In this document: positions 12,960 through 50,986 of the stretch, piece after piece
How positions within the stretch are numbered: the first letter of the stretch is position 1
Layout of the letters: every line of letters starts with the position of its first letter
From: Fonticula-like sp. SCN 57-25
Taxonomy: Eukaryota
Length of the DNA: 50,986 nt
NCBI GenBank assembly: GCA_001724245.1
Contig: MEDX01000021.1
Location: forward strand, 1 to 50,986
Direction of reading: 5' to 3'
Notes under the pieces: generated by a model
Seen by the model: the letters and a program-made list of their open reading frames with translations, nothing else
What the model was told of the DNA's origin: nothing
Database searches by the model: none
Program-made: the position numbers and the translations under genes

Positions 12960-15900
12960 CTAATTCAGGGCATGCGTAATTGCCGCGAGGCGGTCGAGTG
13001 CTCCCGTGCGGTCGTTGCTGGCCGCAAACGCGAGGATTGCCTGCGCGCAGCGCGTGTGCAGGGCGCGAAGCTCGTCCAGGTCGTACGATGCGGTCCCTTT
13101 TGCGAGCGCGTCCAGGGTCAGCTCCCAGCGGGCGCGGTCGATAATGAAGGGCATCTCCTTTGGGGCCGGCGGCGTCGCGGGCTCCTCGGCGGGCGTCGTC
13201 TCCTCGGCGGCGGCGGTCGCGGCCGTCTGCTCGTCGTCGTCCGCCATCGGCTGGTCGTCATCGGCGTCGGCTTCCTCCTCGTCCTGCTCCTCGGCGTCGA
13301 CCTCCATAGCATCCTCGCCACGTGGCGCGATTTCCTCGTCCTCTTCGGACTCTTCCTTCTCATCTTCAGATGCAGAGTCAGAAGCAACAGCATTGGCATC
13401 GTCTTCCTTTTCTTCTTCTTCTTCCTTTTCTTCGTCATCCTCTTCTGCTACCTCTTCTGCTTCTTCTTCTTCCTTCTCTTCATCATCGTCTTCTGCCTCT
13501 TTTTCTTCTTCATCCTTCTCGTCTTCCTCGTTCTCTTCCTCTTCCTTCTCCTCCTTGTCTTCCTCGTCCACTTCCTTATCGTTCCCGTCCCCTTCCTTCT
13601 CTACCTTATCCTCCTCTTCCGCTCCCTTTACGATCTTCTTGGCCGTCTTACGCCTCGCGTCCAGCTCGGCCGGGACTTCATCCACGCGGTCGGGCATCTC
13701 GCCACGCAGCCTGCGGCTATGCCGCGGGCCCAAGTTCTTCTCGGGCGATGCCTCGCGCTTGCGACGCGCCGCGAGGGCCATGCACCGCGAAAGGAGGTCG
13801 GGTTCGATGAGCTTGGAGACCATCTGCGTCGCAATGTCCTTCATGGCACGCGCGCGGTTGACGATGCGCTCGGGGTCGTGGCGCGGGTTGAACTCGCGCG
13901 CGTTCGACAGGATGAGGTCAATGTCGGCGAGATACTCGTCAGGCAGCGAATAAACGCCCTCGTCAATCCTAAAAAACAGCGGAAAAGTAGAAATTTGTCA
14001 GTTTCACCCTTAACAGTCACTTTAGCCAACGCACTTTGACATCATTGTCGTGAGGTCCATGGGATGCTCGATGATCTCGTAATAGTCGGGCAGCACCTCC
14101 GGGTCGACCGGCTTGTGGAATGGCGCAAACTTGCGAACCTTGAGCAGCTCGTCGGTGGCGATGCGCAAGTCAATGCGCAGCTCGCGCAGCGTGTCCTCGT
14201 CGGCGCGCTCGCGCGCGCGGCGCTCTTCGGCCGACACGCGCGGCTTGGGCAGCGCCGGCGCCTTCGGCAGCGGCGGCGGCGGGACCTTGACGATCTCGAT
14301 GAGGGTTTCGCTGCCGTCGTCGGCGAGCTTAAAGCCGGCCGGCGGGCGGAACAGCAACGCCGACAGCGACTCAAAGAACGCGCGGCGGGCATCGACGCCC
14401 GGCGGTGACGCGGTGACGCGCGCGGCCATCGAGCGGCCTGAAAAGAGACGCTCGGTGACCTCGCAGGCGCCGGTGGTCTCTGACGTGGCGAGAAGCAGCA
14501 CGCGCTCCTCGGCCGGAAGCGTCTCAAAGGCGTCGACGAGCGCACTGACGACGGCGTCGGGCGCCGTCGCGGCCCATCTGTCAATGTGCGGAAGGTATGC
14601 GATGGCCGGCTGGCGCTTGCTGAGCTCGCGGAGCAGCGCAAGTGCGGTCGCGTCGGCGCCGCGCAGCCCGTCCGCGGCGAGCAGCGAAGACATGTCAAAG
14701 CTCTGGATAAACAGCGACGTGAACGAGTGCAGCACAGCGGCGCCAATGTCGGCGGCGCCGGGGCCCTGGACCAGCAGCCGCGGGCGGAAAACGCTAAAGG
14801 GCTTGTCCTGCAGCAGAGACGTCGCGCCGTCACCGGACCACTCGTCCTCGCGGCGCAGCAGCGACTCGAGCGTTACAAACTCGGTCGTCTCGGGGGCGCG
14901 GCCGCCGGCGGGCGCGGTGCGCTCGGCGATCATGAGCTTTTCGAGGACGGCAGCGGACCCCGCGGCGACGGCGTCCTTTAGCAGCGGCGCCATCAGCAGC
15001 GGGAGCGGGCGACCCGGGTGCTCGGCGCTGCGCCGCGACGACGGCGTGATGCCGCGCAGTGCCTCGGCAAAGTCGTCGCGGCGCACGCGGATCTGGTCGG
15101 GGTGGATGAGCAGCCGCTCGGACGACTCGTAGATCTGCGGGTAGTGCCGCTTGACCGCCTTGAGCGCCGCGTCGGTGCAGAGCGCGCGGATGTCGGCGCC
15201 GCCAAAACCCTTCGTCGCCTCGGCAAGCTCCGCCTTGAAGCCGTCCTCGAGCGGCGGCGACCACTTTGACGTGTGGATGTCAATGATGGAACGGCGCGCG
15301 ACCGCGTCCGGCAGCGAAAAGAAAAACTCGCGGTCAAAGCGGCCCGGGCGGCGCAGCGCGGGGTCGATCGCGTCAATGCGGTTCGTCGCGCCAATGACAA
15401 TCACCTGGCCGCGGCTATCGAGGCCGTCCATGAGCGCAAGGAGCGTCGACACGATCGACGAGTGGACCTGCTCTTGTTTGGACGACCGCACGGGCGCCAG
15501 GCCGTCAATCTCGTCGAAAAAGATGATGGATGGCTGCATCGCCTGCGCCTGCTCAAACAGGAGTCGCAGCTGGCGCTCCGCCTCGCCGACCCACTTGCTC
15601 AGGCAGTCGGCGCCCTTTCGCATAAAAAAGGAGATTTGGCGGGGTGCGCCGCCGACGCCGGGTACGCCAATCGTCGCAGAGTTGGCGAGCGCGCGCGCCA
15701 TGAGCGTCTTGCCCGTTCCGGGCGGGCCGTGGAAGAGCACGCCACGCGGCGGCGCAACGTCAAAGCGCGTAAACACTTCGGGATACAGCAGCGGTAGCAG
15801 TACCATTTCCTTTAGAATTGCAATATGGTGATTGAGGCCGCCGATCGACTCAAAGGTGGTCTGCGCGACAACGTTGAGCGGGTCCACGTCGGCGCGCGAG

Positions 15901-17081
15901 CTGCTGCCTAGCGGTAGGTGAGCATCGCCGCCCATGTTCAACGGCTGAATGGCGTGGCGCGACCCGCCCGACGACGACATCGGGCCGCCCTTGCGCCGGT
16001 CATAGTGCTTCTCATCGTCGCTTGAATCGTCAAAGCGATTCGCCTTGCGCGGCGACGACAGAATCGCGCTGAGCGACCGCTCGCTGATCCTGCGGTCAGG
16101 GAAACGCTGGCGGTGGCGGTCCATCTCCGCCTCGGACGGAAAGATGGTGGCGTAGTTGACCGACCGGCGCGGCCGCAGCGAGTAGCGGTCGGCGTCATTG
16201 TCGGGAGATGCGGCCCGCGAGCGCCGGCTGCTGCTGTCCTTTCGCGAGCTCGAACGCGACCGGCTCGACTTTTGGCGCGACTGGCGGCTCTCGTGGCGGT
16301 GCTGCCGCTCGCTGGACGCGTGCGACCGCCGAGCGGGCAGAGTGTCGCCGTTGTCGTTGTAGTTGATGGCGCGGCGCTGGCGAAGACCCTCGCGCGTCGT
16401 CGGGGTGTAGATGGGCACCTCTTCTTCGTGCTCTTCCTCGTAAAACACAGGCGGCGGGGGGCGGCGCTCGCGCAGCTGCCGCGTCGTCGCGGGCGTGTGC
16501 ACCCCTTCCTCGGCGTGCTCCGCTTGGTCGGCATCGTGCGCGTCATCGGCAGCGCCGTCATGGTGCGACTCATCGTCGCTCTCCTCGTCCGGCACGACGA
16601 TCCGCCGCCGGCTGCGCAGCGAGCGCGACCCTGACTCGTGCGTTTCCGCCTGCTGCGGCGACACGCTCTCTGTGCGGGCGCGCTTCGACTGCGGCGAATC
16701 CTGCTGCCTCTGTGACCTGCGCCGGGTCAAGGGGTCTTCGTCGTCGTGCTGACTGTCATCGTCTTCGTCGCTGCTCTCGGGATCGACGACGATGGCGCGC
16801 GTCCCACCTCGCGACGGGCGCACGTACATGTCAACCGGTGCAGACCGGCGCGACCGAGACGACGAGTGGCGCATCGGCTGGAAGTCGTCCTCTGAAAAGT
16901 CGTCGTCGTCCTCGGCAAGCACCGGGCGCTTGTCCCGCGACCGAAGCGACCGCGACGACTGCGACGACTCGCGGGACGGCGACTTTGTCGGCGACTGCGA
17001 CATTTGTTTGGCAAACAGCGCGCTCGCAATCTTGCGAGCCGACCTGGCAGCGGACGGGCTCGACTGGCCCCCGCTTCCCAT
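12960..17081 (-). CDS. ATAD2: AAA+ ATPase with bromodomain (ATAD2/Yta7), 2 exons
   Basis: GVLFHGPPGTGKT, FFMRKGADCLSKWVGEAERQLRLLF, IIFFDEIDGLAPVRS and ALRRPGRFDRE; bromodomain FHKPVDPEVLPDYYEIIEHPMDL split by an intron near 13968-14034. Confidence 0.95.
13330..13640 (-). repeat. Glu/Asp/Lys-rich low-complexity coding repeat within ATAD2
   Basis: (TCT/TCC/TCA)n on the + strand; the peptide contains two copies of AE(D/E)DDEEKEEEE. Confidence 0.8.
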
Positions 17082-25898: not shown

Positions 25899-28800
25899 TT
25901 ACCAACCGGCGAGGCGGTCGAGCATGGCAATCCACTTGTCGCGCTCGTCATCGGTGGTGGCGTCGAAAAAGTACTCGCGGTTGCTCCTCATGAGGATCTT
26001 GAAGCCGCAGCGCCGCCCGACGGCCGACAGGTCGACCTTTTCGACCTTGACCGCCTGGTCGAGACGGATAATACCGCGAGGCTCCTTGTCCTTCTTGTCC
26101 TGGTAGTAGAGGAGGAAGTGGTTGTTGAGGACGAGGTGGCGCTGCTCCCACTTTTTCGTGTTGCTGCCGCCCTGCTTGTACATGAGCGCGACGGCGGCGC
26201 TTCCGCGCATGGCGGTGGCAAAAGTAAGGTCGCCAAAGAGAAGCTTGACGAGGTCCGCCTCCTTGGGGAACTTTTCGTACACGTGGCGGAGCTGCATCTG
26301 AGCCTCCTGGCAGCGGTACGCAACCTCGATGAGCTGCTGGCGCTCGGCCTCGAGCAGGTTCAGCTTCTTGGTCAGCTCGGCGTTGCGCGCCACGAGCGAC
26401 TTCATGTCCGACGCCTGCGCGTGGATCGTGATGGCAGAGTTGGCCACCTCGCGCTCGAGGCGCGAAATGTTGTCCGTCGTAATGTTGGACACCTCCGACA
26501 GGCGGTGCTCCAGGTTGCGGCGCTCAATCATGATGCTGTCAATCACGGCCTGCTTGTTGTACGCGGCCGCGGCGGCCTGCGAGCGCACCTCCTGAATCTC
26601 CTCGCCCATGCGGCGCACCTCGTCAGCGTGCTGCGCCTCAGAGTCCGCAAGGCGCGCGCGGAGCATGCCGGCGCCGCGCATCTCCTCGCTAAGGCGCGCC
26701 TCCAGAACGGCGATGCGCTCAAACAGAGCAGACATGCGCGACTCGGCAGCCTCGAGCTGGCCTTGCGCCTGGCCAAGGTCCGTGCGGGCAGCAGCGTGCG
26801 CGCGACGCTCCTCGGCAAGCTGCGCCTCCACCTCGGCCTTTTGCGACGTGAGGCGGTTCAGAGCAGTGTTGCTCGAAGCCTGGGCCTCGGCGACGCGCTT
26901 CTCGGCAGCGATGCGGCCCTCGTTCTCGACGCGGATCGCAGCCTTGAGCTGGTTGATGCGGGCCTCAATCTCGCTGCGCATGCGGGCAACGTCGTCGCGC
27001 ATCGTGCGCTGTGCCGTGGCGGCGGCCTCGCGCTCCTTCTCCTGCGACGCCTTTTCGGCCGCGAGCGCCTCCTCGAGGTGCGCGCGGCGCGTCTCGGCGG
27101 CGCTGCGCGCCTCGCTCACGTCGCGCAGCTTGTTCTCGAGCTCGCCCTTTTCGGCGAGCGCCACGTGAAGATCCTTGAGGAGCGTGGTCGAGTCGCTCTC
27201 GGACGCCTTCTTGAGTGCGTTGATCTCGGTCACCTTTGACGCGCGCAGCTCCTCAATGTGGACGTTGAGGCTCTGGACGGCCGCCTTTTGGACGGCGAGC
27301 TCGGACGAGGCGTCCGACACGACCTTGGCCTGCGCAGCGAGCGTCGAGCGCGACTCGGCGAGCTGCGTCTCGGTGGCCTGGCGGGCGGTGGCCTCGGCCG
27401 TGAGGCGCTCCTGAAGGCTAGCCTTCTCGGCCTCGAGGGCGCGCGACGCCTCCTCGACGCGCTGCAGACGCGCCTCCAGCTCGGTGGTGTGCGCGGCAAC
27501 CTGCTCCTTGGCCTCGGTCATCTGGAGCAGTGACTCCTTAAGCTGGTTCGCGGCGAGCTTGAGCTCGTCGACCTGCTGCGAGTGGAGCAGGCGCTCCTCC
27601 TCGTCGCGGCGGCGCTTCTCCTCCTTGGCAATGCGGCGCTCCTCCTGCTGGCGCGCAAGCTGCGCCTCCTGCTCGGCCTTGAGCACGCGCTCCTGCTCGA
27701 GACGCTCTGCCTCGAGACGCTTCTCCTCCTGCTCGCGCAGCAGCTCCTCCTCGCGGCGCTTGCGCAGGATCTCGTCGCTGTACAGGCGGCGGCGCACGGT
27801 CTTGAGAAGGCCCTTCCAGATGCGCACGTAGCGCACAAAGAAGCGCGCGGTCCTACGGAAGCGGCGCACGAGGCGCACGCTCTCGATGCGTTTGCCGAGG
27901 CGGCCGATCGAGCGAACCGCGTGGATGGCAGCGCGGAAGCGCTTGCGCGCCAGCCAGCTCATGACCTTGGCCACAATGTGGTGCGAGGTCGCGGCGTCGT
28001 CACCCATCAGCTCGTCCATGAGCGAAAGCTTGCCGGCGCGGAAAAAGACCTTGGACAGGCCCGACTGGAAGTCCTCACCGCCGTGCAGGTCGAGCGCCAC
28101 GAGGAGCGCCTCGCAAAACTGGTTCGGCGCGAGGCTCGCCACCTTGGCGGGCATCCTGTCCTTGTAGCGCGCATAGAGCTCGTCAAAGGAGACGCGAGTG
28201 GGGAAGCCCTGCTGCATGAGCTGCAGCGCGGTGCACATGCCGCTGTAGCGCAGCTGCTGCATCACGCTGACGCTCTCAAAGACGCCGGCCGTCTGCACGC
28301 CGTTGGGCTTGATGCAGCGGATAAAGTGCGACTGGGTCTTCTCGAGCTGCTCGAGCAGCGCAGCGAGCTGCTTCTGGAACTTGCTGCCGACGCTCTTGAA
28401 GCGACCGCCCGAGACGAGCGCCTTGCAGTCGTCCTTGTTGATCTCCTCCTCCTTGGCAAACACGCCGCGCAAAAAGGCCGACGCCGAGCCGCTGAGCAGC
28501 TTGATGAGGTCCTCGTGCAGCGTGTCGTTGTTCTTGGCCAAAAAGTTCTTCACCTCGTACAGCACGTCACCGGCAAAGTGCTTCACCACAAAGGCGTCGT
28601 TCTCGTTCACGCGCTTCTTGGTCTTGCCGGGCTTGGGCTTTTCGAGCGCAGGGTTGCCGGCGTGCATCGTGTGCAGCTTGACGGCAAAGGTCTTGTCGCT
28701 CGACTGGGGCATGAGGCACTCCTCATCGAGGAGCGAAAGCACGCCGTTGCGGCGGTTCTCGACAAGGTCGATGATGCCGACGTTGTCCTCATAGTCAATC

Positions 28801-30450
28801 TTGCGCCAGCGAAGGCCCTCGAGCTCGTAAATGTCCTGCTCCTGCTTGAGGATCTGCTGGTTAAAGTACTGCTGGATCTTTTCGTTCGAGTAGTTGATGC
28901 AAAACTGCTCAAACGAGTTGGTCTCAAAGATCTCAAATCCAGAGATGTCGAGGACGCCGATCGAGTTGGCCGCCGAGGTCACCGGGATCGACTTGTTGAT
29001 CGTGAGGACGAGCCAGTCAAAGAGCGCCGCGTAAATGTACTTGGCGAGCGAGTCGCGGACCGTGGCCGCCTCGGCCACCTTGAGCGGGATGCTGTACGTC
29101 TCCTGGCGGTTGCCCGCGACCATGGTGCGCGTCACGAGGCCCTCGCTGAGCGCGTTCACCGGCAGCGAAAAGAGCTGCGAGGCGAGCTGGACCTTGGCGG
29201 CCGACTCGGGCGCGACGGTGCAGCGCTCGCCGTCAGAGTCGGTGACCGGCACAAAGGTCACGTCGCCGAGGTGAAGCAGCGCCGCGAGCGTCTGGAAGAT
29301 GTTGTTGCGCGTCGCCTCGTCGATGCCGAGCGACTCGAACGCCTTGATGACGACGTTGAACTCGGCGGCGTCGTTGACGTTGTCGATGCGCGTGCAGTTG
29401 CCCTGGTTCAGGAACGCGTGCTGCTCGGGGCCCTGCAAAAAGTACGTGTTGCGCTGCGCGGGCGTGCTGCCGGCCAGCAGCTGGTAAAAGATGTGGAAGC
29501 TACGCTCGCCGGCGGCCTGCGACACAAGGCGCGACTTTTCGAGCAGGTACGACTCGATGCGGGCGCCAGACATGCGCCACGAATTGTCAAACGTAATGTC
29601 GGTGAACTTGCCGAAACGCGACGAGTTGTTGTTGCGCGTCGTCTTGGCGTTACCAAAGGCCTCGAGAATTGGGTTCGCCTTAAGGATGCGCTCCTGGATC
29701 GAGTCGGTGGACGCACCCGCGCCCGCACCGCCCACCTTGGCCATGTACCGCATAACATGCTTGCACGTCTCCGTCTTACCGGCGCCCGACTCGCCGCTGT
29801 AGACAAGCGCAACAGACACGTCAGCACGCGGCAGGGACGGCATCAAAAGGAAAGAGCGCACCTGACGACGATCGACTGGTTGCGCTTGTTGCTCTTCATG
29901 CTACGGTAGGCGCGATCGGCGACCGCGTACACGTGCGGCGGAAGCTTGCCGATCGACTTGCCGGTGTACTGGGCAATCTTGTCATCGCCGTAAATGTCGA
30001 CCGCGCGATAAGGGTTGACGGCAATCAGAATGTAGGCGGTGTAGGTATAAATTTCGCCCTATTCCCTTCCCGGTCAGCTGGACTGTTTTCGCGCGTAAAT
30101 GTTTGGGAGATGCCCACGCACCTTTGCGTATCTGATGCGGAGATTGTCGAGCAAGGACGGGTCGTGCAGGAACGTGAGCTCCGTGTTGTCCTGGACGCCG
30201 GCCGTGTTAGTCGCGTCATAGGGGAACACCGAGGCGGCGGCCACGGTCTCCGCCTTGTAGTCCTTGTCAAACACCACCAGCGATCCGTTCGCGCTAACCT
30301 CCTTGACGGTCACGACCTACGTGGCGCCTCGTGAGCGTCGTGGGTAAATATACGTCACCGCCGGCGTACCTTGAAGCATTCCTGCGCGTCAGCGATCCAA
30401 ACGCGGTCCCCCTTGTTAATCGCCGGGGACGAGGCGACGGTGCTCTTCAT
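25899..30450 (-). CDS. Unconventional myosin: myosin-VI-like motor, ER/K helix, coiled coil and C-terminal PH domain, 4 exons
   Basis: GESGAGKT, EAFGNAKTTRNNNSSRFGK, DISGFE and FIRCIKPN; C-terminal MYKQGGSNTKKWEQRHLVL...LLYY...PRGII...EYFFDA...ERDKWIAML. Confidence 0.92.
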
Positions 30451-30919
30451 TCTTTCGATCTTTCGCTGGAACTAAGCCCAGCCCCCCTAAGTTCAGGGCA
30501 CACCGCAAACGTCGCGTGTGTGCCGCAAATATGCAGTAGCAACAGGGATTGCGCCCTTGGACCGTTCTTCGCCGGTTATTTTCGTCATTCCTTTTTGCCA
30601 GCCGGCCAATCACGAAACGGTCAGGAATGCCAGATCGCTGTGACATGCCTGTAGGTTGCGGCAGGGCTGCAGCAAGTTGCCGATTCACCCATGAGATTCG
30701 GTGATCGGTTTTCAGGAATGTTGCCGGCGGACTGTATTTTACCAAGGAATAGGCAGCGTATAGGGCGAGCGCGAATGATGCTGCAAAGCAGCGGCGTGTG
30801 CGGCTGTTCTGTGCAGAAATAAAGCTGAATTTTTATGCGTTTCAATGGTGTTTGACGTTTGTATGGTTGCAAAAAGGACAGAAAGGCACTTTATAATTGG
30901 GTCGCTCTATGGCAATGGT

Positions 30920-32305
30920 TTACACGAATCCAAACCTCTCGACCTGCTCCAGCTTGTCCTGCATGTAGTCCATCTCGTCGTCGTCGTCGGCCTCGATGTT
31001 GTCGGTGCTGTTCCTCCTGGACGGCTCCTCCGACGGCGGCGCCGACACGAACGGCTCCTGAATCGACTGCACGTCCGGCTTGACGGCGGGCTTGCTGCGC
31101 GCGCGGCGGCGGCGGCCGGGCTCGCTGAGCGAGCTGCCGGGCGCCAGCGACTCTGAAATCGCCTTGGAGAGGCCGGCGACGATTTCAGAAACGGGCTTTG
31201 TCTCGTCGTACGCGCCGACGTCCATGCGGTGCAGGATGCTAAGAACGAGCTCAAAGTTGCGCGTCGCGAACTCGGTCAGGACGGCCACCTCGCTCGCGCA
31301 GTCAAAGCAGTGGTCGAGTCCGGGGACGCCCGTGACCTCGTGCGGGTAGAGCGCCACGCGCGTGACGTTGTTAAAGTAAAACATTTGCTCCTCGTGCGCG
31401 CGGTTGTCGTACTGCACCAAAGCGTCGCCACCGTTTGTGACAGAAAGGTACACCTCGGTTCCCGTGGCCGGGCTCCAGATGGGCAAAAACATCTCGCCAG
31501 ACAAGTAGGACGTAATCAGGTCGTTCCACGGCAGGCCAAACCTGAGCAGCGCGGCGGCGGGCTTTATCGAGTCGCACCACTCCTTCTGCAACTTCATGTG
31601 GACGATCATCTGAAACTGGGCATCCTCTTCCTCGACGATGCGGCACTCGCTCACAAGCAGAATGGGAAGCGACGCAAACTCGGCCACGCTCTCGTCGCTA
31701 AACGCCTGCTCGCGCCACTCGAGAAGCGCGACGTCGCCCAGCTCCAGCGGCATCGGCGCAGTGTCGTAAACGATAAAGCGGTGATGCGGGAACATCTGGC
31801 ACAGGATCGGAAGGTGGGCGCTCACCGGCAACAGCATCACAACAGTGTCCGCAAGCGCCCCGTTCCTCAGAAGAAACTCTGTCACGGCCAACAACTGCGA
31901 CCGCGCCTTCCAGTTCACCACGCTCTTGACATCATCCCGACGCCGCCTGTACTTCATGCGCGGCGCCTCGACCAAAAGCTGGCGCGAGAACGGAATGTCC
32001 AACCGGGATCCCATGTTGATCACGCGGTCGTGCTGCGCCTGGAGGACGTGCTTGTTCGCGCGCGGATCGCTCCACGCCGACTCGCCCGTAATCACAACAG
32101 GGGCAAGCCGCGACCTCACCGGTGCTTCGGTTTCATCATGGCGATCGCGACGCCACCGATCGGACAGGACGCCATCTCGCGTCGGCGAATGATCGCGATA
32201 GGACCTCTGGCCGCGGCCGCGGTGGCGGCGTCCGGACTCGGGCTCCTCGTCGGCATACATGCCTCCGAAGCGCTCCCGGCGGCGCCTCCTTTGATCGTCC
32301 TCCAT
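30920..32305 (-). CDS. Poxvirus VP39 / poly(A) polymerase regulatory subunit-like (cap 2'-O-methyltransferase fold), probably catalytically dead; intronless
   Basis: Family-type segments KYRRRRDDVKSVVNW, LLRFGLPW...YLSGEMFLPIWSPATGTE and YDNRAHEEQMFYFNNVTR...GLDHCFDCASEVAVL (recalled consensus). Confidence 0.75.
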   Translation of the reverse strand: MEDDQRRRRRERFGGMYADEEPESGRRHRGRGQRSYRDHSPTRDGVLSDRWRRDRHDETEAPVRSRLAPVVITGESAWSDPRANKHVLQAQHDRVINMGSRLDIPFSRQLLVEAPRMKYRRRRDDVKSVVNWKARSQLLAVTEFLLRNGALADTVVMLLPVSAHLPILCQMFPHHRFIVYDTAPMPLELGDVALLEWREQAFSDESVAEFASLPILLVSECRIVEEEDAQFQMIVHMKLQKEWCDSIKPAAALLRFGLPWNDLITSYLSGEMFLPIWSPATGTEVYLSVTNGGDALVQYDNRAHEEQMFYFNNVTRVALYPHEVTGVPGLDHCFDCASEVAVLTEFATRNFELVLSILHRMDVGAYDETKPVSEIVAGLSKAISESLAPGSSLSEPGRRRRARSKPAVKPDVQSIQEPFVSAPPSEEPSRRNSTDNIEADDDDEMDYMQDKLEQVERFGFV

Positions 32306-32318
32306 CACGTCTCGACGC

Positions 32319-32339
32319 TGACGTCACGGAGTGACGTCA
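32319..32339. promoter_or_regulatory. Two perfect CRE palindromes
   Basis: TGACGTCA at 32319-32326 and 32332-32339, in the divergent promoter between the VP39-like gene and VTI1. Confidence 0.55.
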
Positions 32340-32530
32340 ACAAAGTCTCATGCACGTGGCCGCGCTCTATTTACTGGTTTCGGTCGTCTCTTTTCCCTTG
32401 TGTTTGCGCAAGCCACAGCAGGGATCGCCGCGAGGGTGCGCTCAGGCCAGCATGGCGCTCTTTATTAATTGGCTAAATTGTCTGTAGTACCTTGCTTTAA
32501 GCGCATCTTTTTTTTTGCCCTTTGGACAAC

Positions 32531-33721
32531 ATGTCGAACCCGGGCGGGTCGGAACTTTTCGAGAGCTATGAGCGCGACTATATGGCGATCGCGTCATCTC
32601 TGAGCCGCAGGATCAACTCGCACATTCCCAACTACACCGGGGGTACGTTTAACGCAATAGCGAGCTTTTTATTTTGCGATTGCCTTTGCTCATTGGTCCC
32701 ACAGAGCAGAAGAAGGAGAGCATCCGCGCCGCGTACCGCGAGCTGGAGGAGGGCGATGAGATCGTACGTGATCCGCTCTCTGTGAAACGCCATGCTGATG
32801 CACGGCCGGTCTTTAGATTGAGCAAGTGGACATGGAGCTGCGCGGCCTTCCGGCTGCCACGCGCAATCGCCTGCAGCCTCGCCACAAGAACTACAAGAAC
32901 GATCACGCTCGCCTCAAGAAGGAGCTCGTGCGTTTGACAGGGGCGAAACACGTGTCGGTCGCTCACCGCCCGCTTTTCTTTTCCTTTTCCTTTCGTTGGA
33001 ATTTCTTAGAAAGTGGTTGAGAGTGCCGGCCTCAATCAGCGTGATGAGCTGCTGGGCGGCGGCGCCTCGGATCTCGATGGCACGTCGGCCGATCAGCGCG
33101 CTCGCCTGCTCAACGCCAATTCCCGCCTGGAGAACTCGACCAAGCGCCTCGAGCAGAGCCACATGCTTGTCTCGGAGACGGAGGAGATTGGCGCCGATAT
33201 TCTGCGCCAGCTCGCCGGCCAGCGCGAGACCATTCAGGGCGCCCGGAAAAAGGTGCGTTTCATGGTAGTTTGCGCGGCGTGACGGCCACTGACGCGCGGA
33301 AATAGCTCGATAATGTAGATGAGAATATTGACAAGAGCGATAACATTCTGCGCGCGATGGGTCGGAGGTCCGTTTTCTTCTTTTGATACTATTATGTTTT
33401 GTGGATGCATAGGGAAGGGAAAAGGAAAGGGATGACATTTGGCATGCAGTTATTTCATCAGGATAAATGTTTATCCCGCGTTATGTTTTGTATATTCGTT
33501 TATATCATGTAGGTATGTGTTACTTGGCTGTGCAGTTTGTTTTGTACGCCCTTTGCAAATACATTGGCGCTACGCACATTTGTTTGCACCCTGGGGGATC
33601 AAAATGCTGACGCGCCGCTTTCCGAATCATTAGGATCCAAACGAACAAGGTCATCACTGCGCTCATCATCATCGTACTGCTCGGCATTATCGGCCTGATC
33701 ATCTACCTGTCGGTGGCCTAA
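32531..33721 (+). CDS. VTI1: Qb-SNARE Vti1, 6 exons
   Basis: SELFESYERDY, DQRARLL...RLENSTKRLEQS...ETEEIGADILRQLAGQRETI...LRAMGRR, and a C-terminal TM helix. Confidence 0.93.
33430..33581 (+). ncRNA. Candidate intronic box H/ACA RNA in VTI1 intron 5
   Basis: Hairpin (GGATAAA/TTTATCC), H-box ATATCA at 33502-33507, second hairpin (TGTAG/CTACG, ATGTGTT/AATACAT, GGC.GTGCAG/TTGTACGCC), then ACA at 33576-33578. Folded by eye only. Confidence 0.35.
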
Positions 33722-48792: not shown

Positions 48793-48877
48793 ACTCTTTT
48801 TCCTCGGCATAGTTTTTATAGGCCGCGTCTGCCCGTCACCCGCACACTCGCGTCTTTACCTGTTGTCAGCTTTGGCG

Positions 48878-49406
48878 ATGGCTCGTGGAGCGTTGTTCAT
48901 TGCCGCGGCGGCCCTCCTCCTGGTGGGGCTCGCCGGCGTGCATGCGACCGAGGAGAAGCTTGAGAATGTTATCGGTATCGATCTTGGAACCACCTACTCG
49001 TGCGTCGGCATCTTCCGTGGCGGCCGCGTCGAGATCATCCCCAACGACCAGGGCAACCGCATCACTCCGTCGGTTGTCGCCTTCACCGACGATAGCGAGC
49101 GCCTTATCGGCGACTCGGCCAAGAACCAGGCTGCCATGAACCCCGAGCGCACCGTCTATGATGCCAAGCGCCTTATCGGCCGCCGCTTCACCGAGAAGGA
49201 TGTGCAGAACGACATGAAGAACTGGCCTTTCAAGGTTGTCAGCAAGGACGGCAAGCCCGCCATTAGCGTGGAGGTGTCCGGCAAGCCGGTCGTCTTTGTC
49301 CCCGAGGAGATCTCGGGCATGGTCCTGCTCAAGATGAAGGAGATCGCCGAGACTTACCTTGACAAGGAAGTTAAGCACGCTGTCGTCACCGTGCCCGCCT
49401 ACTTCA

Positions 49407-49437
<31 letters not shown>

Positions 49438-50836
49438 TGGCACCATCGCTGGCCTCAACGTGGTGCGCATCATCAACGAGCCCACCGCCGCCGCCATTGC
49501 CTACGGCCTCGACAAGAAGGACGACGAGCGCGTCATTCTCGTTTTCGATCTCGGAGGCGGTACCTTTGACGTGTCCATCCTCGCCATCGACGGCGGCGTC
49601 TTTGAGGTGCTCTCGACCAACGGTGACACTCACCTCGGTGGTGAGGACTTTGACCACCGCGTCATGGACTACCTGATCAGCCTCTTCCAGCGCAAGCACA
49701 AGAAGAACCTCCGCGACGACCTCCGCGCCCTCGGCAAGCTCAAGCGCGAGGTGGAGAAGGCCAAGCGCACCCTCTCGCTCCAGACCTCGGCCCGCATCGA
49801 GATCGAGTCGATCATGGACGGCATTGACTTTACCGAGACGCTCACCCGCGCCAAATTTGAGGAGCTCAACATTGACCTCTTCCGCCGCACGCTCGAGCCC
49901 GTCAAGAAGGTGCTTGAGGACGCTGGCCTCGCCAAGAACGAGATCAACGACATTGTGCTCGTCGGCGGCTCGACCCGCATCCCCAAGGTCGTCGAGCTCC
50001 TCGAGACCTTCTTTGAGGGCCGCAAGGCCAACAAGGGCATCAACCCCGACGAGGCCGTCGCGTACGGCGCTGCTGTCCAGGGCGGCGTCCTCTCCAACCA
50101 GGCCGAGACTGAGGACATTGTGCTCCTCGACGTGTGCCCGCTCACGCTCGGCATTGAGACTGCCGGCGGCATCATGACCAAGATCATCCCGCGCAACACT
50201 GTCGTCCCGACCAAGAAGAGCCAGATGTTCACCACCACGGCCGACAACCAGCCCACCGTCAGCATCGTCGTGTACGAGGGCGAGCGCCAGATGACCAAGG
50301 ACAACAACCAGCTCGGCAAGTTTGACCTGACCAACCTCGCCCCCGCCCCCCGCGGCGTCCCGCAGATTGAGGTCACCTTTGAGATTGACGTTAACGGCAT
50401 TCTGCGCGTGTCCGCGCTCGACAAGGGCACCGGCAAGTCCAACTCTGTCACGATCACCAACGACAAGGGCCGCCTCACCCAGGAGCAGATCGACCGCATG
50501 ATCGCCGACGCTGAGCGCTACGCCGAGGAGGACCGTCTCGTCCGCGAGCGCGTCGAGGCCCGCAACGCCCTCGAGGCCTACGCGTACCAGCTCAAGAACC
50601 AGGTCGCTGACGAGCAGGCGCTCGGCGGCAAGCTCTCGGAGGAGGAGAAGGAGACCATCACGACCGCCGTCGACGAGACGCTCTCGTGGATCAACGCCAA
50701 CTCGGAGGCCGAGACTGACGACATCAACGAGCAGAAGAAGACGCTCGAGGGCATCGTCCACCCGATCGTCTCGCGCCTCTACGCCGACGGGTCCGCCGGC
50801 GGCGAGGAGGAGATGCCCGACCACGACGAGCTCTAA
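48878..50836 (+). CDS. HSPA5: ER Hsp70 chaperone BiP/GRP78, intronless
   Basis: Signal peptide, [32 protein letters not shown] and C-terminal HDEL. Confidence 0.98.
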
Positions 50837-50986
50837 GCTGAAAAAAGACAAATTGTCCTCAGTTCTAGATGGATGTGTAAAAGAAATAACGCTTTGTTTT
50901 TGATGTGCGTGCATGGTTATGTGCGTGGGCGCACGGTCTGTATTCCAATATACTTGTTGAATGTGCTCATCATACTTTGAAACGCC

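Follow-up and report, generated by a model that had tools for sequence, protein, structure and literature searches.

One open reading frame in the 50,986-nt stretch of DNA analysed here (the window) specifies a protein of the VP39/TbMTr2 family that is of full length, with a degenerate active site and with the residues of the cap pocket kept. VP39 is both a cap 1 2'-O-methyltransferase and the processivity factor of VP55. Methylation appears to have been lost from the protein described here, which is best explained, with a probability of roughly 0.6, as a nuclear protein that reads the cap or serves as a scaffold without being catalytic. m7G-capped RNA would be held in the retained pocket (Y119, W260, E305, D262) and left unmodified, and the Arg-rich N-terminus and a basic C-terminal patch would place the protein in the nucleus together with pre-mRNA-processing factors. 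The gene itself would be cellular and resident in its host, an opisthokont-like protist that is uncultured, rich in GC, and equipped with introns. Its features are listed in Table 1.

Table 1. Positions of the gene, its motifs, and its upstream region in the window
Feature	Position	Strand	Remarks
Coding sequence of the predicted VP39/TbMTr2-family pseudo-methyltransferase	30920..32305	-	461 codons; stop codon at 30920-30922
Arg-rich mixed-charge N-terminus, residues 1-75	32081..32305	-	19 R, 8 D, 8 E, 5 S, lysine absent; predicted to be largely disordered
VP39-type Rossmann-like fold, residues 99-392	31130..32011	-	aligns to VP39 residues 1-297
Y119	31949..31951	-	candidate counterpart of Y22 in VP39 and Y18 in TbCom1, the first aromatic residue stacking on the cap; present in 19/19 degenerate relatives
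First-lysine motif NWKARSQL (family HWGQRKLL), residues 131-138	31892..31915	-	K41->S136, Q39->A134
Degenerate SAM loop VVMLLPVSAH (family VVYAGAAPGTH), residues 155-164	31814..31843	-	glycine absent, one residue deleted, H164 kept
LVSECR (family FISDIR), residues 217-222	31640..31657	-	D138->E220; R222 kept
LLRFGLPWND (family MLKFRLPW..), LLRFGLP at residues 253-259	31520..31549	-	K175->R255, R177->G257; W260 (VP39 F180) and D262 (VP39 D182) kept
TGTEVY (family TTTExR), GTE at residues 282-284	31448..31465	-	E207->E284 kept; R209->Y286
HEEQMFYFN	31370..31396	-	E305 = VP39 E233 / TbCom1 E253 (m7G hydrogen bond); in 19/19 degenerate relatives
DHCFDC motif, residues 331-336, family-specific C-terminal module	31298..31315	-	C333, D335, C336 invariant in alignment A1
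C-terminal tail, residues 401-461	30923..31105	-	basic patch, low-confidence linker, acidic stretch with predicted helix 441-458
Two perfect TGACGTCA palindromes, 32319-32326 and 32332-32339	32319..32339	.	14-35 nt upstream of the ATG

Membership in the VP39/TbMTr2 family

With E-values of at most 1e-3, phmmer revealed 2353 relatives, and 196 of them remained at a limit of 1e-30. Since the E-values reach down to 4e-56 for the best non-self match, chance similarity is excluded. A family profile from alignment A1 matched 12 distinct VP39 sequences with E-values from 2e-26 to 4e-24, and VP39 was still matched (E 7.5e-9) by a profile built from six degenerate members only. With the protein sequence alone, no VP39 chain was found among the PDB sequences; profiles were needed for this step. 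A word-indexed protein search gave five matches each with the protein and with the profile of the degenerate clade; the low-complexity tails probably swamp its filter, and an exhaustive HMMER search was used instead. For PF01358 (PARP_regulatory), the Pfam family proposed as a check, the outcome was divided: it was detected at E 5.1e-5 over residues 176-317 only, but with 22.8 bits it stayed below the gathering cut-off of 25.4. This sub-threshold score fits the loss of motifs described below; 42 of the 43 members aligned in A1 match PF01358 at E<=0.001.

A VP39-type Rossmann-like fold was found in the AlphaFold model of the protein (pLDDT 79.1, pTM 0.75), for which Foldseek ranks 1 to 21 were without exception VP39 chains. 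Homology to the VP39/TbMTr2 family is real, as had been predicted. The protein shares its family with TbMTr2 (TbCom1/TbMT48) of T. brucei and with the relatives of TbMTr2 in protists and giant viruses, which form the 'cap2 methyltransferase' branch of PF01358. Its nearest relatives carry the motifs HWGQRKLL, YAGAAPGTH, ISDIR, LKFRLPW, TTE, and DHCYDC and include Naegleria gruberi, a species assigned to the TbMTr2 branch by Werner et al. 2011 (PMC3113572).

Degeneration of the catalytic tetrad and the SAM loop

All motif strings quoted in the original prediction (NWKARSQL, MLLPVSAH, LVSECR, LLRFGLP, GTE, and DHCFDC) are located at the expected alignment columns, and the consensus to which they had been compared (HWGQRKLL, YAGAAPGxH, ISDIR, MLKFRLP, and TTE) is the majority sequence in 152 aligned relatives. 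Among these, the first lysine of the tetrad is present in 133, the aspartate in 142, and the second lysine in 135. In the profile-to-VP39 alignment the K-D-K-E tetrad is replaced by S-E-R-E (S136, E220, R255, E284), and the SAM loop YAGAAPGTH has become MLLPVSA-H, so that both losses proposed earlier were borne out. The loop replacements are G159 to L, G163 to A, and Y157 to M, accompanied by Q134 to A.

According to the contact list in PMC1636459, AdoMet is bound by VP39 through Q39, Y66, G72, H74, and D138. Three of these five methionine-side contacts (Q39, Y66, G72) are replaced by A134, M157, and A163, D138 is conservatively changed to E220, and the equivalent of H74, H164, is the sole one kept. 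Two RNA-backbone arginines are also gone; in place of R257 and R286, conserved to 97-98% in active members, the protein has G and Y, respectively. Neither the K-D-K-E tetrad nor the AdoMet loop with its contacts, by which the cap 2'-O-methyltransferase class is recognised, is thus present. On its adenosine side, the SAM pocket has retained D181, F202, R222, and H164, and a lysine, K133, is located three residues before S136. When residues of the AdoMet site of TbCom1 are changed singly to alanine, less than 2% of activity is reported to be left (PMC1636459). As the tetrad is dismantled, and likewise the SAM pocket on its methionine side, methyltransferase activity is not expected from the sequence.

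The changes are not spread evenly over the protein. Of the 68 columns in which 133 active-looking relatives are conserved to at least 85%, the protein has retained 45. The 26 columns in the catalytic and SAM motifs account for 17 of the losses and the other 42 columns for 6 (Fisher p 3.9e-5), where both the division into 19 degenerate and 133 active-looking members and the choice of motif columns were defined after the alignment had been seen. Three of the 133 active-looking relatives have one tetrad change each.

Retention of the cap pocket

The residues that hold m7G in VP39 (Y22, F180, E233) are conserved in the protein, making it a putative cap-binding protein. W260 and E305 were placed by the profile alignment to VP39, and Y119 was equated with Y22 from the offset of the aligned ranges, which is not a residue-level superposition. 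Y119, an aromatic residue at 260, and E305 are all kept in 19/19 degenerate members. Likewise, equivalents of TbCom1 Y18, Y187, and E253 and of F180, D182, and E233 of VP39 (vaccinia/monkeypox; PDB 1av6, 8oiv) are present. Among the TbCom1 mutants in PMC1636459, binding is lost in Y18A, Y187A, and E253A, about half of capped-RNA binding is left in H75A, and D142A and R144A lose activity while strong binding to capped RNA is retained. The earlier suggestion of a cap reader hence gains indirect support from two sides, the cap-stacking and hydrogen-bonding residues that are kept and the AdoMet-site mutants of TbCom1/TbMTr2 that still bind capped RNA (PMC1636459). As judged from these residues, capped RNA is probably bound by the protein but left unmodified.

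Terminal regions and comparison with known systems

The charged tails described in the original prediction were confirmed, with the composition of residues 1-75 given in Table 1 and a net charge of -9 over residues 426-461. Of 152 family members, 23 have Arg-rich or RS-like tails; since most of these are active-looking, the Arg-rich N-terminus is not particular to the dead copy. The N-terminal region is likely a nuclear-targeting or RNA-processing tail. Accessory domains of relatives, namely WW domains that pass the Pfam cut-off in P0010 and P0022 and G-patch domains in 3 of the 43 members of A1, together with the composition of the tails, would be in line with a nuclear localisation. The DHCFDC motif is kept as stated before, and the sequence alignment with VP39 stops before this module.

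Compared to VP39, the protein differs by an additional H/C-rich C-terminal module and by replaced catalytic and AdoMet methionine-side residues. It is also specified by a cellular gene, and a VP55-type partner is not in evidence among the 18 open reading frames scanned in the window. From TbMTr2 it differs in having S-E-R-E instead of K-D-K-E, a lost SAM loop, no expected methyltransferase activity as far as the residues tell, and an Arg-rich N-terminus, a feature common to some active relatives. Methyltransferase folds without an active site that are needed for a cap-related function are also described (PMC3113572, PMC4402537, PMC9479742) for D12 of vaccinia and for the RFM-like domain at the C-terminus of human CMTR2 (hMTr2). 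These belong elsewhere in the RrmJ-like superfamily, and each is joined to an active enzyme that is known, by fusion or by tight binding, whereas the protein described here is free-standing, of the VP39/TbMTr2 type, with a cap pocket intact by its residues and no known partner.

Genomic setting and selection

The reading frame is intact and intronless, as originally proposed. An in-frame TGA is located seven codons 5' of the ATG (32305), and there is no sign of an intron because the family alignment is unbroken over residues 76-405. The two TGACGTCA palindromes lie within a divergent intergenic region of 216 nt, which is common to a gene for a Vti1-like SNARE, and are possible promoter elements. 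A Pfam scan of 18 open reading frames of the window revealed ordinary cellular, intron-bearing genes of an opisthokont-like protist as neighbours, and therefore the region is not a viral island. No match was obtained by tblastn of phage records, and scanning the window for tRNA genes and Rfam families yielded nothing. The gene has a GC3 of 0.83, and its relative synonymous codon usage correlates with that of neighbouring genes (r 0.88). Capsaspora, Naegleria, Ceratiomyxa, and choanoflagellates are found among the 30 relatives that were given names. The gene had been considered possibly virus-related. This holds in a deep sense only, the family being common in giant viruses; codon usage of the gene is host-like, its neighbours are cellular and intron-bearing, and cellular organisms harbor relatives.

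In contigs of two other metagenome runs, 17 variant sites were detected, 14 synonymous and three non-synonymous, with 320 synonymous and 1063 non-synonymous sites available (binomial p 4e-7; pN/pS about 0.06); these contigs are of low depth (about 2-8) and may represent one or two strains. Purifying selection acts on the gene. The dN/dS check that had been recommended was carried out in this form, as population variants, and indicated that the gene is retained and not decaying. Transcription is represented by one 157-nt metatranscriptome contig (X20) over positions 30983-31139, too little to claim expression, and a second 'RNA?' run covering the gene was flagged as probably DNA.

Degenerate relatives

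Applying the division mentioned above, 19 of the 152 nearest family representatives are degenerate. These include the metagenomic protein P0003 and P0010, P0062, and P0064 from the choanoflagellates Salpingoeca urceolata, Choanoeca perplexa, and Microstomoeca roanoka. As in the protein from the window, the first lysine is absent, the SAM loop is degraded, and Y119, the aromatic residue at 260, and E305 are kept, but identity is just 28-35% and the replacement residues are not the same. Because of these different replacements, it is not demonstrated that the loss goes back to a common origin. P0003, at 35% identity, is saturated for dN/dS. The choanoflagellate proteins also differ in carrying an N-terminal WW-like domain, above the Pfam cut-off in P0010 and just below it in P0062 and P0064, instead of an Arg-rich tail. 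Holozoa harbor both kinds, active in Capsaspora and degenerate in three choanoflagellates.

The phylogeny that had been suggested was calculated with FastTree and as an IQ-TREE quick tree, which do not resolve the placement of the gene. A six-member degenerate clade including P0001, P0003, and the choanoflagellate proteins was not rejected (p-AU 0.653), nor was one clade of all 19 degenerate members (p-AU 0.362), and P0072 and P0109 were placed within an active clade with a branch support of 99 in the IQ-TREE quick tree. Since the tree tests permit alternatives, no claim is made on one or several origins or on a viral or cellular donor. A metagenome scan, covering the best 80 of 147 loci, did not reveal a close orthologue; 3 of 88 were degenerate (L065, L079, L082), and the first-lysine segment is absent from four metagenome loci.

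Alternative functions

The protein could also act as an obligate non-catalytic subunit by which an active cap methyltransferase, a VP39/TbMTr2-type paralog or another one, is activated or targeted, with cap binding being secondary. We consider this less probable, but it has to be taken seriously. Precedents exist in vaccinia D12 with D1 and in the inactive second methyltransferase-like domain of human CMTR2: the inactive C-terminal domain of hMTr2 is described as essential for activity (PMC3113572) and D12 as an inactive 2'-O-methyltransferase homologue retained by poxviruses (PMC4402537). The occurrence of active and degenerate members side by side in Holozoa and a surface that is nearly all kept outside the active site (36 of 42 conserved non-motif columns) would agree with such a function. 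However, there is no known partner, VP39 and TbCom1 are not known to need a subunit of this kind for methylation (PMC1636459), and a pure activator does not need the cap triad that is retained in 19/19 degenerate members. That the protein is still an enzyme, an unorthodox methyltransferase or one using another adenosine cofactor via E220, R255, E284, and perhaps K133, appears improbable. The conservative changes of D to E and K to R, the adenosine side that is kept along with E284, and the position of K133, by inferred geometry one helical turn ahead of position 136, may allow some catalysis to remain or an adenosine ligand to be bound. Against catalysis stand the replaced loop residues and Q134, the deleted residue, the exchange of both arginines nearly invariant in active members, and the fate of the TbCom1 AdoMet-site mutants; furthermore, the terminal branch of the gene, 1.97 vs a median of 0.78 in the IQ-TREE quick tree, fits a released catalytic constraint.

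A methylation-independent function as processivity factor of a poly(A) polymerase, as for VP39 with VP55, had been another option of the original prediction, in favour of which nothing was found specifically for this protein; we regard it as very improbable. VP39 does have such a second role (PMC4402537), and matches by Foldseek and VIA-align included the VP39 chain of the VP55-VP39 heterodimers 2ga9 and 2gaf, but this reflects the same fold and is not a match of the interface. A viral-type poly(A) polymerase is absent from the 18 open reading frames scanned with Pfam in the 51-kb window, Mg18 of Megavirus is described in the same source as binding its poly(A) polymerase without conferring processivity, which argues against a family trait, and a cellular host should use its canonical nuclear poly(A) polymerase. 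Equally remote is a functionless remnant, either recently inactivated or derived from a virus and heading to decay. The very long terminal branch, the sub-threshold Pfam score, and the weak evidence for transcription would suit a remnant, but the frame of 461 codons is intact, synonymous changes strongly prevail among the variants, codon usage and neighbours are those of a cellular gene, and 45 of the 68 family-conserved columns are kept with losses concentrated at the active site. A non-catalytic cap-binding reader or scaffold consequently remains the preferred function.

Implications

No published description of a protein of this kind was found in the literature searched, as judged from abstracts and passages. 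The case adds a clear example to the known pseudo-enzymes, with losses concentrated in the active site (17/26 vs 6/42) and population variants under constraint. While cap 2'-O-methyltransferases have been known as enzymes that write, a free-standing protein of the VP39/TbMTr2 branch that lost this ability, kept its cap pocket, and is maintained by selection would represent a writer converted into a reader or regulator. More tentatively, and with considerable doubt, dead VP39/TbMTr2-type proteins might constitute a class of m7G-cap readers that recurs in unicellular eukaryotes, among them the nearest relatives of animals, and is maintained by selection. WW domains or Arg-rich tails would tether these proteins to the machinery of transcription and processing, and as cap-binding modules they would have originated independently of eIF4E and CBP20. 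WW domains in CMTR1 bind the Pol II tail. The dead choanoflagellate copies, some with WW domains of the CMTR1 kind, would offer a culturable route to the question of which cap-adjacent marks are read, and by which proteins, in relatives of animals that branched off early.

Homology of the 461-aa protein to VP39

The VP39-like ORF was read as a single uninterrupted frame, as expected from the original prediction, and all motif strings quoted there were found in it with verified window coordinates. An in-frame TGA lies seven codons 5' of its start (ATG at 32305) and a divergent Vti1-like SNARE gene begins 216 nt away, so that an extra upstream exon is unlikely.

Features of the window and motifs of the 461-aa VP39-like protein
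Feature	Position	Strand	Remarks
VP39-like ORF	30920-32305	-	461 codons, uninterrupted (ORF reading)
NWKARSQL	residues 131-138
VVMLLPVSAH	residues 155-164
LVSECR	residues 217-222
LLRFGLPWND	residues 253-262
TGTEVY	residues 281-286
HEEQMFYFN	residues 304-312
DHCFDC	residues 331-336
Family-specific module	residues 322-339 (~31289-31342)		H322...(D)H332-C333-x-D335-C336...E339
AAA ATPase with bromodomain	14022-17081	-	bromodomain match reaches only position 45 of the 84-position profile and ends with the ORF
Myosin, long coiled coil and C-terminal PH domain	25899-29843	-	head match begins at profile position 87
TGACGTCA palindromes, two	32319-32326, 32332-32339	.	spacing 13 nt; 14-35 nt 5' of the ATG, within the 216 nt between the two divergent genes
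HSP70, full-length	48878-50836	+	PF00012, E 3e-254
682-aa ORF	48866-50914	-	antisense to HSP70

Pfam alone makes a weak case for the proposed relationship to VP39, the poxvirus cap 2'-O-methyltransferase. The score for PF01358 was 22.8 bits, below the cut-off of 25.4, and a PDB sequence search with the protein alone returned no VP39 chain. Family, profile and fold searches, however, place homology beyond doubt. An exhaustive HMMER search yielded 2353 relatives at E<=1e-3, of which 196 reach E<=1e-30 (best non-self match 4e-56). A profile of 43 relatives (A1) matches 12 distinct VP39 sequences with E values from 2e-26 to 4e-24, and one built only from six degenerate members (A2) matches VP39 at 7.5e-9. 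The AlphaFold2 model built with A1 (mean pLDDT 79.1, pTM 0.75) is confident at about residues 80-400, with pLDDT below 50 at 15-53, 55-68, 408-440 and 458-461. Foldseek ranks 1-21 were VP39 chains throughout (E about 4e-14 to 5e-13, target-normalised TM 0.72-0.76), and a search of the ESM Atlas concurred.

Catalytic tetrad and ligand pockets

The family alignment comprised 152 proteins: the query, four from a word-indexed protein search and 147 from the exhaustive HMMER search. Of the tetrad residues, 133 of them carry the first K, 142 the D and 135 the second K, with R at that last position in another 14; the family consensus of the original prediction is the true majority. When the family profile is aligned to VP39 with HMMER, K41, D138, K175 and E207 correspond to S136, E220, R255 and E284, which fixes the tetrad as S-E-R-E, in agreement with the original prediction. 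Further equivalents from this alignment are R177=G257, F180=W260, D182=D262, R209=Y286 and E233=E305.

The predicted loss of the SAM-binding loop applies to one side of the pocket. In the available text of Hall and Ho (PMC1636459), the methionine side of AdoMet is contacted by Q39, Y66, G72, H74 and D138 of VP39 and the adenosine side by D95, F115 and R140. The former are A134, M157, A163, H164 and E220 in the 461-aa protein, with a SAM loop shorter by one residue, but the latter are retained as D181, F202 and R222, which speaks against total loss of ligand binding.

The relatives were split by eye into 19 degenerate proteins and 133 active-looking ones, three of which have one tetrad change. 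Among the active-looking set, 68 columns are at least 85% conserved, and the query retains 45. Of the 23 lost columns, 17 are among the 26 of the catalytic and SAM motifs, which were picked after viewing the alignment, and 6 among the other 42 (Fisher p 3.9e-5). All conserved columns at 305-393 are retained, likewise the five at 86-122 in the N-terminal module. The DHCFDC motif is kept as predicted and belongs to the module H322-E339, near-invariant in active and dead members alike; the sequence alignment to VP39 ends ahead of this module, which may be a metal site.

In the accessible text of PMC1636459 and PMC4402537, Y22 and F180 of VP39 stack on m7G, and D182 and E233 hydrogen-bond to it. 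The equivalents are W260, D262 and E305 by alignment and Y119 by offset of the aligned ranges. Y119, an aromatic residue at 260 and E305 occur in all 19 degenerate relatives, whereas only 114 of the 133 active-looking ones have E at 305.

Phylogeny, selection and expression

Two family trees placed the protein differently, and the degenerate copies may have one origin or several, with or without a viral donor. FastTree grouped it with the metagenomic P0003 and a choanoflagellate trio (support 83). In a mixture-model quick tree it fell inside a group (support 84) that comprises 12 degenerate proteins and P0128, on a terminal branch of 1.97 versus a median of 0.78; long-branch attraction is a live risk in these trees. 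A six-member clade that includes the query, P0003 and the choanoflagellate trio, defined after viewing the FastTree tree, was not rejected (p-AU 0.653), and the constrained tree was 13.9 log-likelihood units above the free quick search. A single clade of all 19 degenerate proteins was likewise not rejected (p-AU 0.362), yet two proteins, P0072 and P0109, sit within an active clade (branch support 99).

Near-identical DNA was found in other public metagenome runs, and variants were surveyed over 30400-32900 with contigs from four of them, two of DNA and two labelled as RNA. Within the ORF, 17 variant sites were detected, 14 synonymous and three non-synonymous (S414A, H359R, L239M). Set against the 320 synonymous and 1063 non-synonymous sites of the ORF, the silent excess is significant (binomial p 4e-7) and pN/pS is about 0.06, on variant contigs of depth about 2-8 that come from two runs and possibly one or two strains. 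Contigs of run X4 are mosaic in divergence, with 11 differences in 550 nt at 31031-31580 (3' half) and none in 442 nt at 31773-32214 (5' half), which suggests two strains or recombination in the sample. GC3 of the ORF is 0.83, compared with 0.74-0.89 in six Pfam-supported neighbours, and its RSCU correlates with that of the pooled neighbours (r 0.88). Evidence of transcription is slight: a single metatranscriptome contig of 157 nt spans 30983-31139, and the second run labelled as RNA was flagged as probably DNA.

Genomic neighbourhood

The window is filled with cellular genes of ordinary kinds, several with introns, among them genes for an MFS transporter, a cation-efflux protein, a carboxylesterase, HSP70, and SAM-domain and WD40 proteins. 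From the profile position at which its head match begins, the myosin gene has its first exon or exons upstream; its best named relatives are a Capsaspora 'MYO6 variant' (59%), a eukprot transcriptome protein (57%) and a Fonticula protein (55%). The AAA ATPase gene, which presumably specifies an ATAD2/Yta7-type protein, would continue after an intron in a further exon, since the bromodomain match stops at the ORF end. The 682-aa ORF matches PF10712 'NAD-specific glutamate dehydrogenase' (E 4e-133); this identity was rejected as an annotation trap, the ORF being an antisense frame of HSP70.

With such intron-bearing neighbours and an even GC content (0.52-0.70), the locus is not a viral island. 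The host is probably a single-celled opisthokont that has been sampled only in metagenomes. The palindrome TGACGTCA, which we take to be a CRE/ATF-type site, occurs only twice in the 51-kb window, a count that chance readily gives (27 of 100 shuffles); the feature of note is the adjacency of both copies at one promoter, not their count.

Family members and possible function

The suggestion of a possibly virus-related protein holds for the family, with relatives in giant-virus MAGs, but not for this locus with its cellular neighbours. The giant-virus MAG copies are active-looking and about 30% identical to the 461-aa protein, and only 3 of 88 viral and metagenomic loci fetched carry degenerate copies. 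The named cellular members from Capsaspora, Ceratiomyxa and Naegleria are each active-looking; the choanoflagellates Salpingoeca urceolata (P0010), Choanoeca perplexa (P0062) and Microstomoeca roanoka (P0064) have degenerate members. Werner et al. 2011 (PMC3113572), in the text available, include Naegleria, Paramecium, Perkinsus and Monosiga proteins in the TbMTr2 branch.

The N-terminal residues 1-75 contain 19 Arg, 8 Asp, 8 Glu, 5 Ser and no Lys, and residues 426-461 have a net charge of -9, consistent with the predicted Arg-rich N-terminus and acidic tail. Accessory modules recur across the family: P0010 and P0022 have a WW domain that passes the Pfam cut-off, P0062 and P0064 one slightly under it, G-patch is found in 3 of 43 A1 members, and Arg-rich tails with RS/RD repeats in 23 of 152 family members (e.g. 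P0066, P0005, P0107). An Arg-rich N-terminus is thus one of the accessory features of the family and does not distinguish the dead copy. In the very long members P0026 (1562 aa), P0047 (1486 aa) and P0125 (1478 aa), the methyltransferase domain lies mid-protein or near the C-terminus. WW, G-patch and Arg-rich tails are module kinds of nuclear RNA-processing factors. Modules of the WW, G-patch and RS-like kind are also carried by CMTR1. CMTR1 is recruited to the Pol II CTD (PMC6071836, available text). Animal CMTR1 and the protist VP39/TbMTr2-type proteins share the same accessory set but belong to different methyltransferase lineages, which looks like convergent architecture.

For the trypanosome homologue TbCom1, the accessible text of PMC1636459 reports that D142A and R144A in the AdoMet site reduce activity below 2% while capped-RNA binding stays strong, that H75A leaves about half of the binding, and that Y18A, Y187A and E253A abolish it. 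This precedent and the retained cap residues favour the cap-reader option of the original prediction, and from them we infer the binding itself. The protein may equally be a silent partner of an active enzyme, for which D12 and the C-terminal domain of CMTR2 are precedents in the text available from PMC3113572, PMC4402537 and PMC9479742. A role as poly(A) polymerase (PAP) cofactor, also proposed originally, found no support; according to PMC4402537, the Megavirus homologue Mg18 binds its PAP without giving processivity, so that PAP binding in the VP39 family need not yield it. In the literature reached by full-text search, as far as its text was available, no catalytically dead free-standing VP39/TbMTr2-type protein is described; the supplementary tree of Werner et al. 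might show a Monosiga member. As the simplest reading of its residues, the 461-aa protein would still grip the m7G cap through the retained pocket, would be unable to methylate it, and would act as a cap reader or scaffold, probably in the nucleus.
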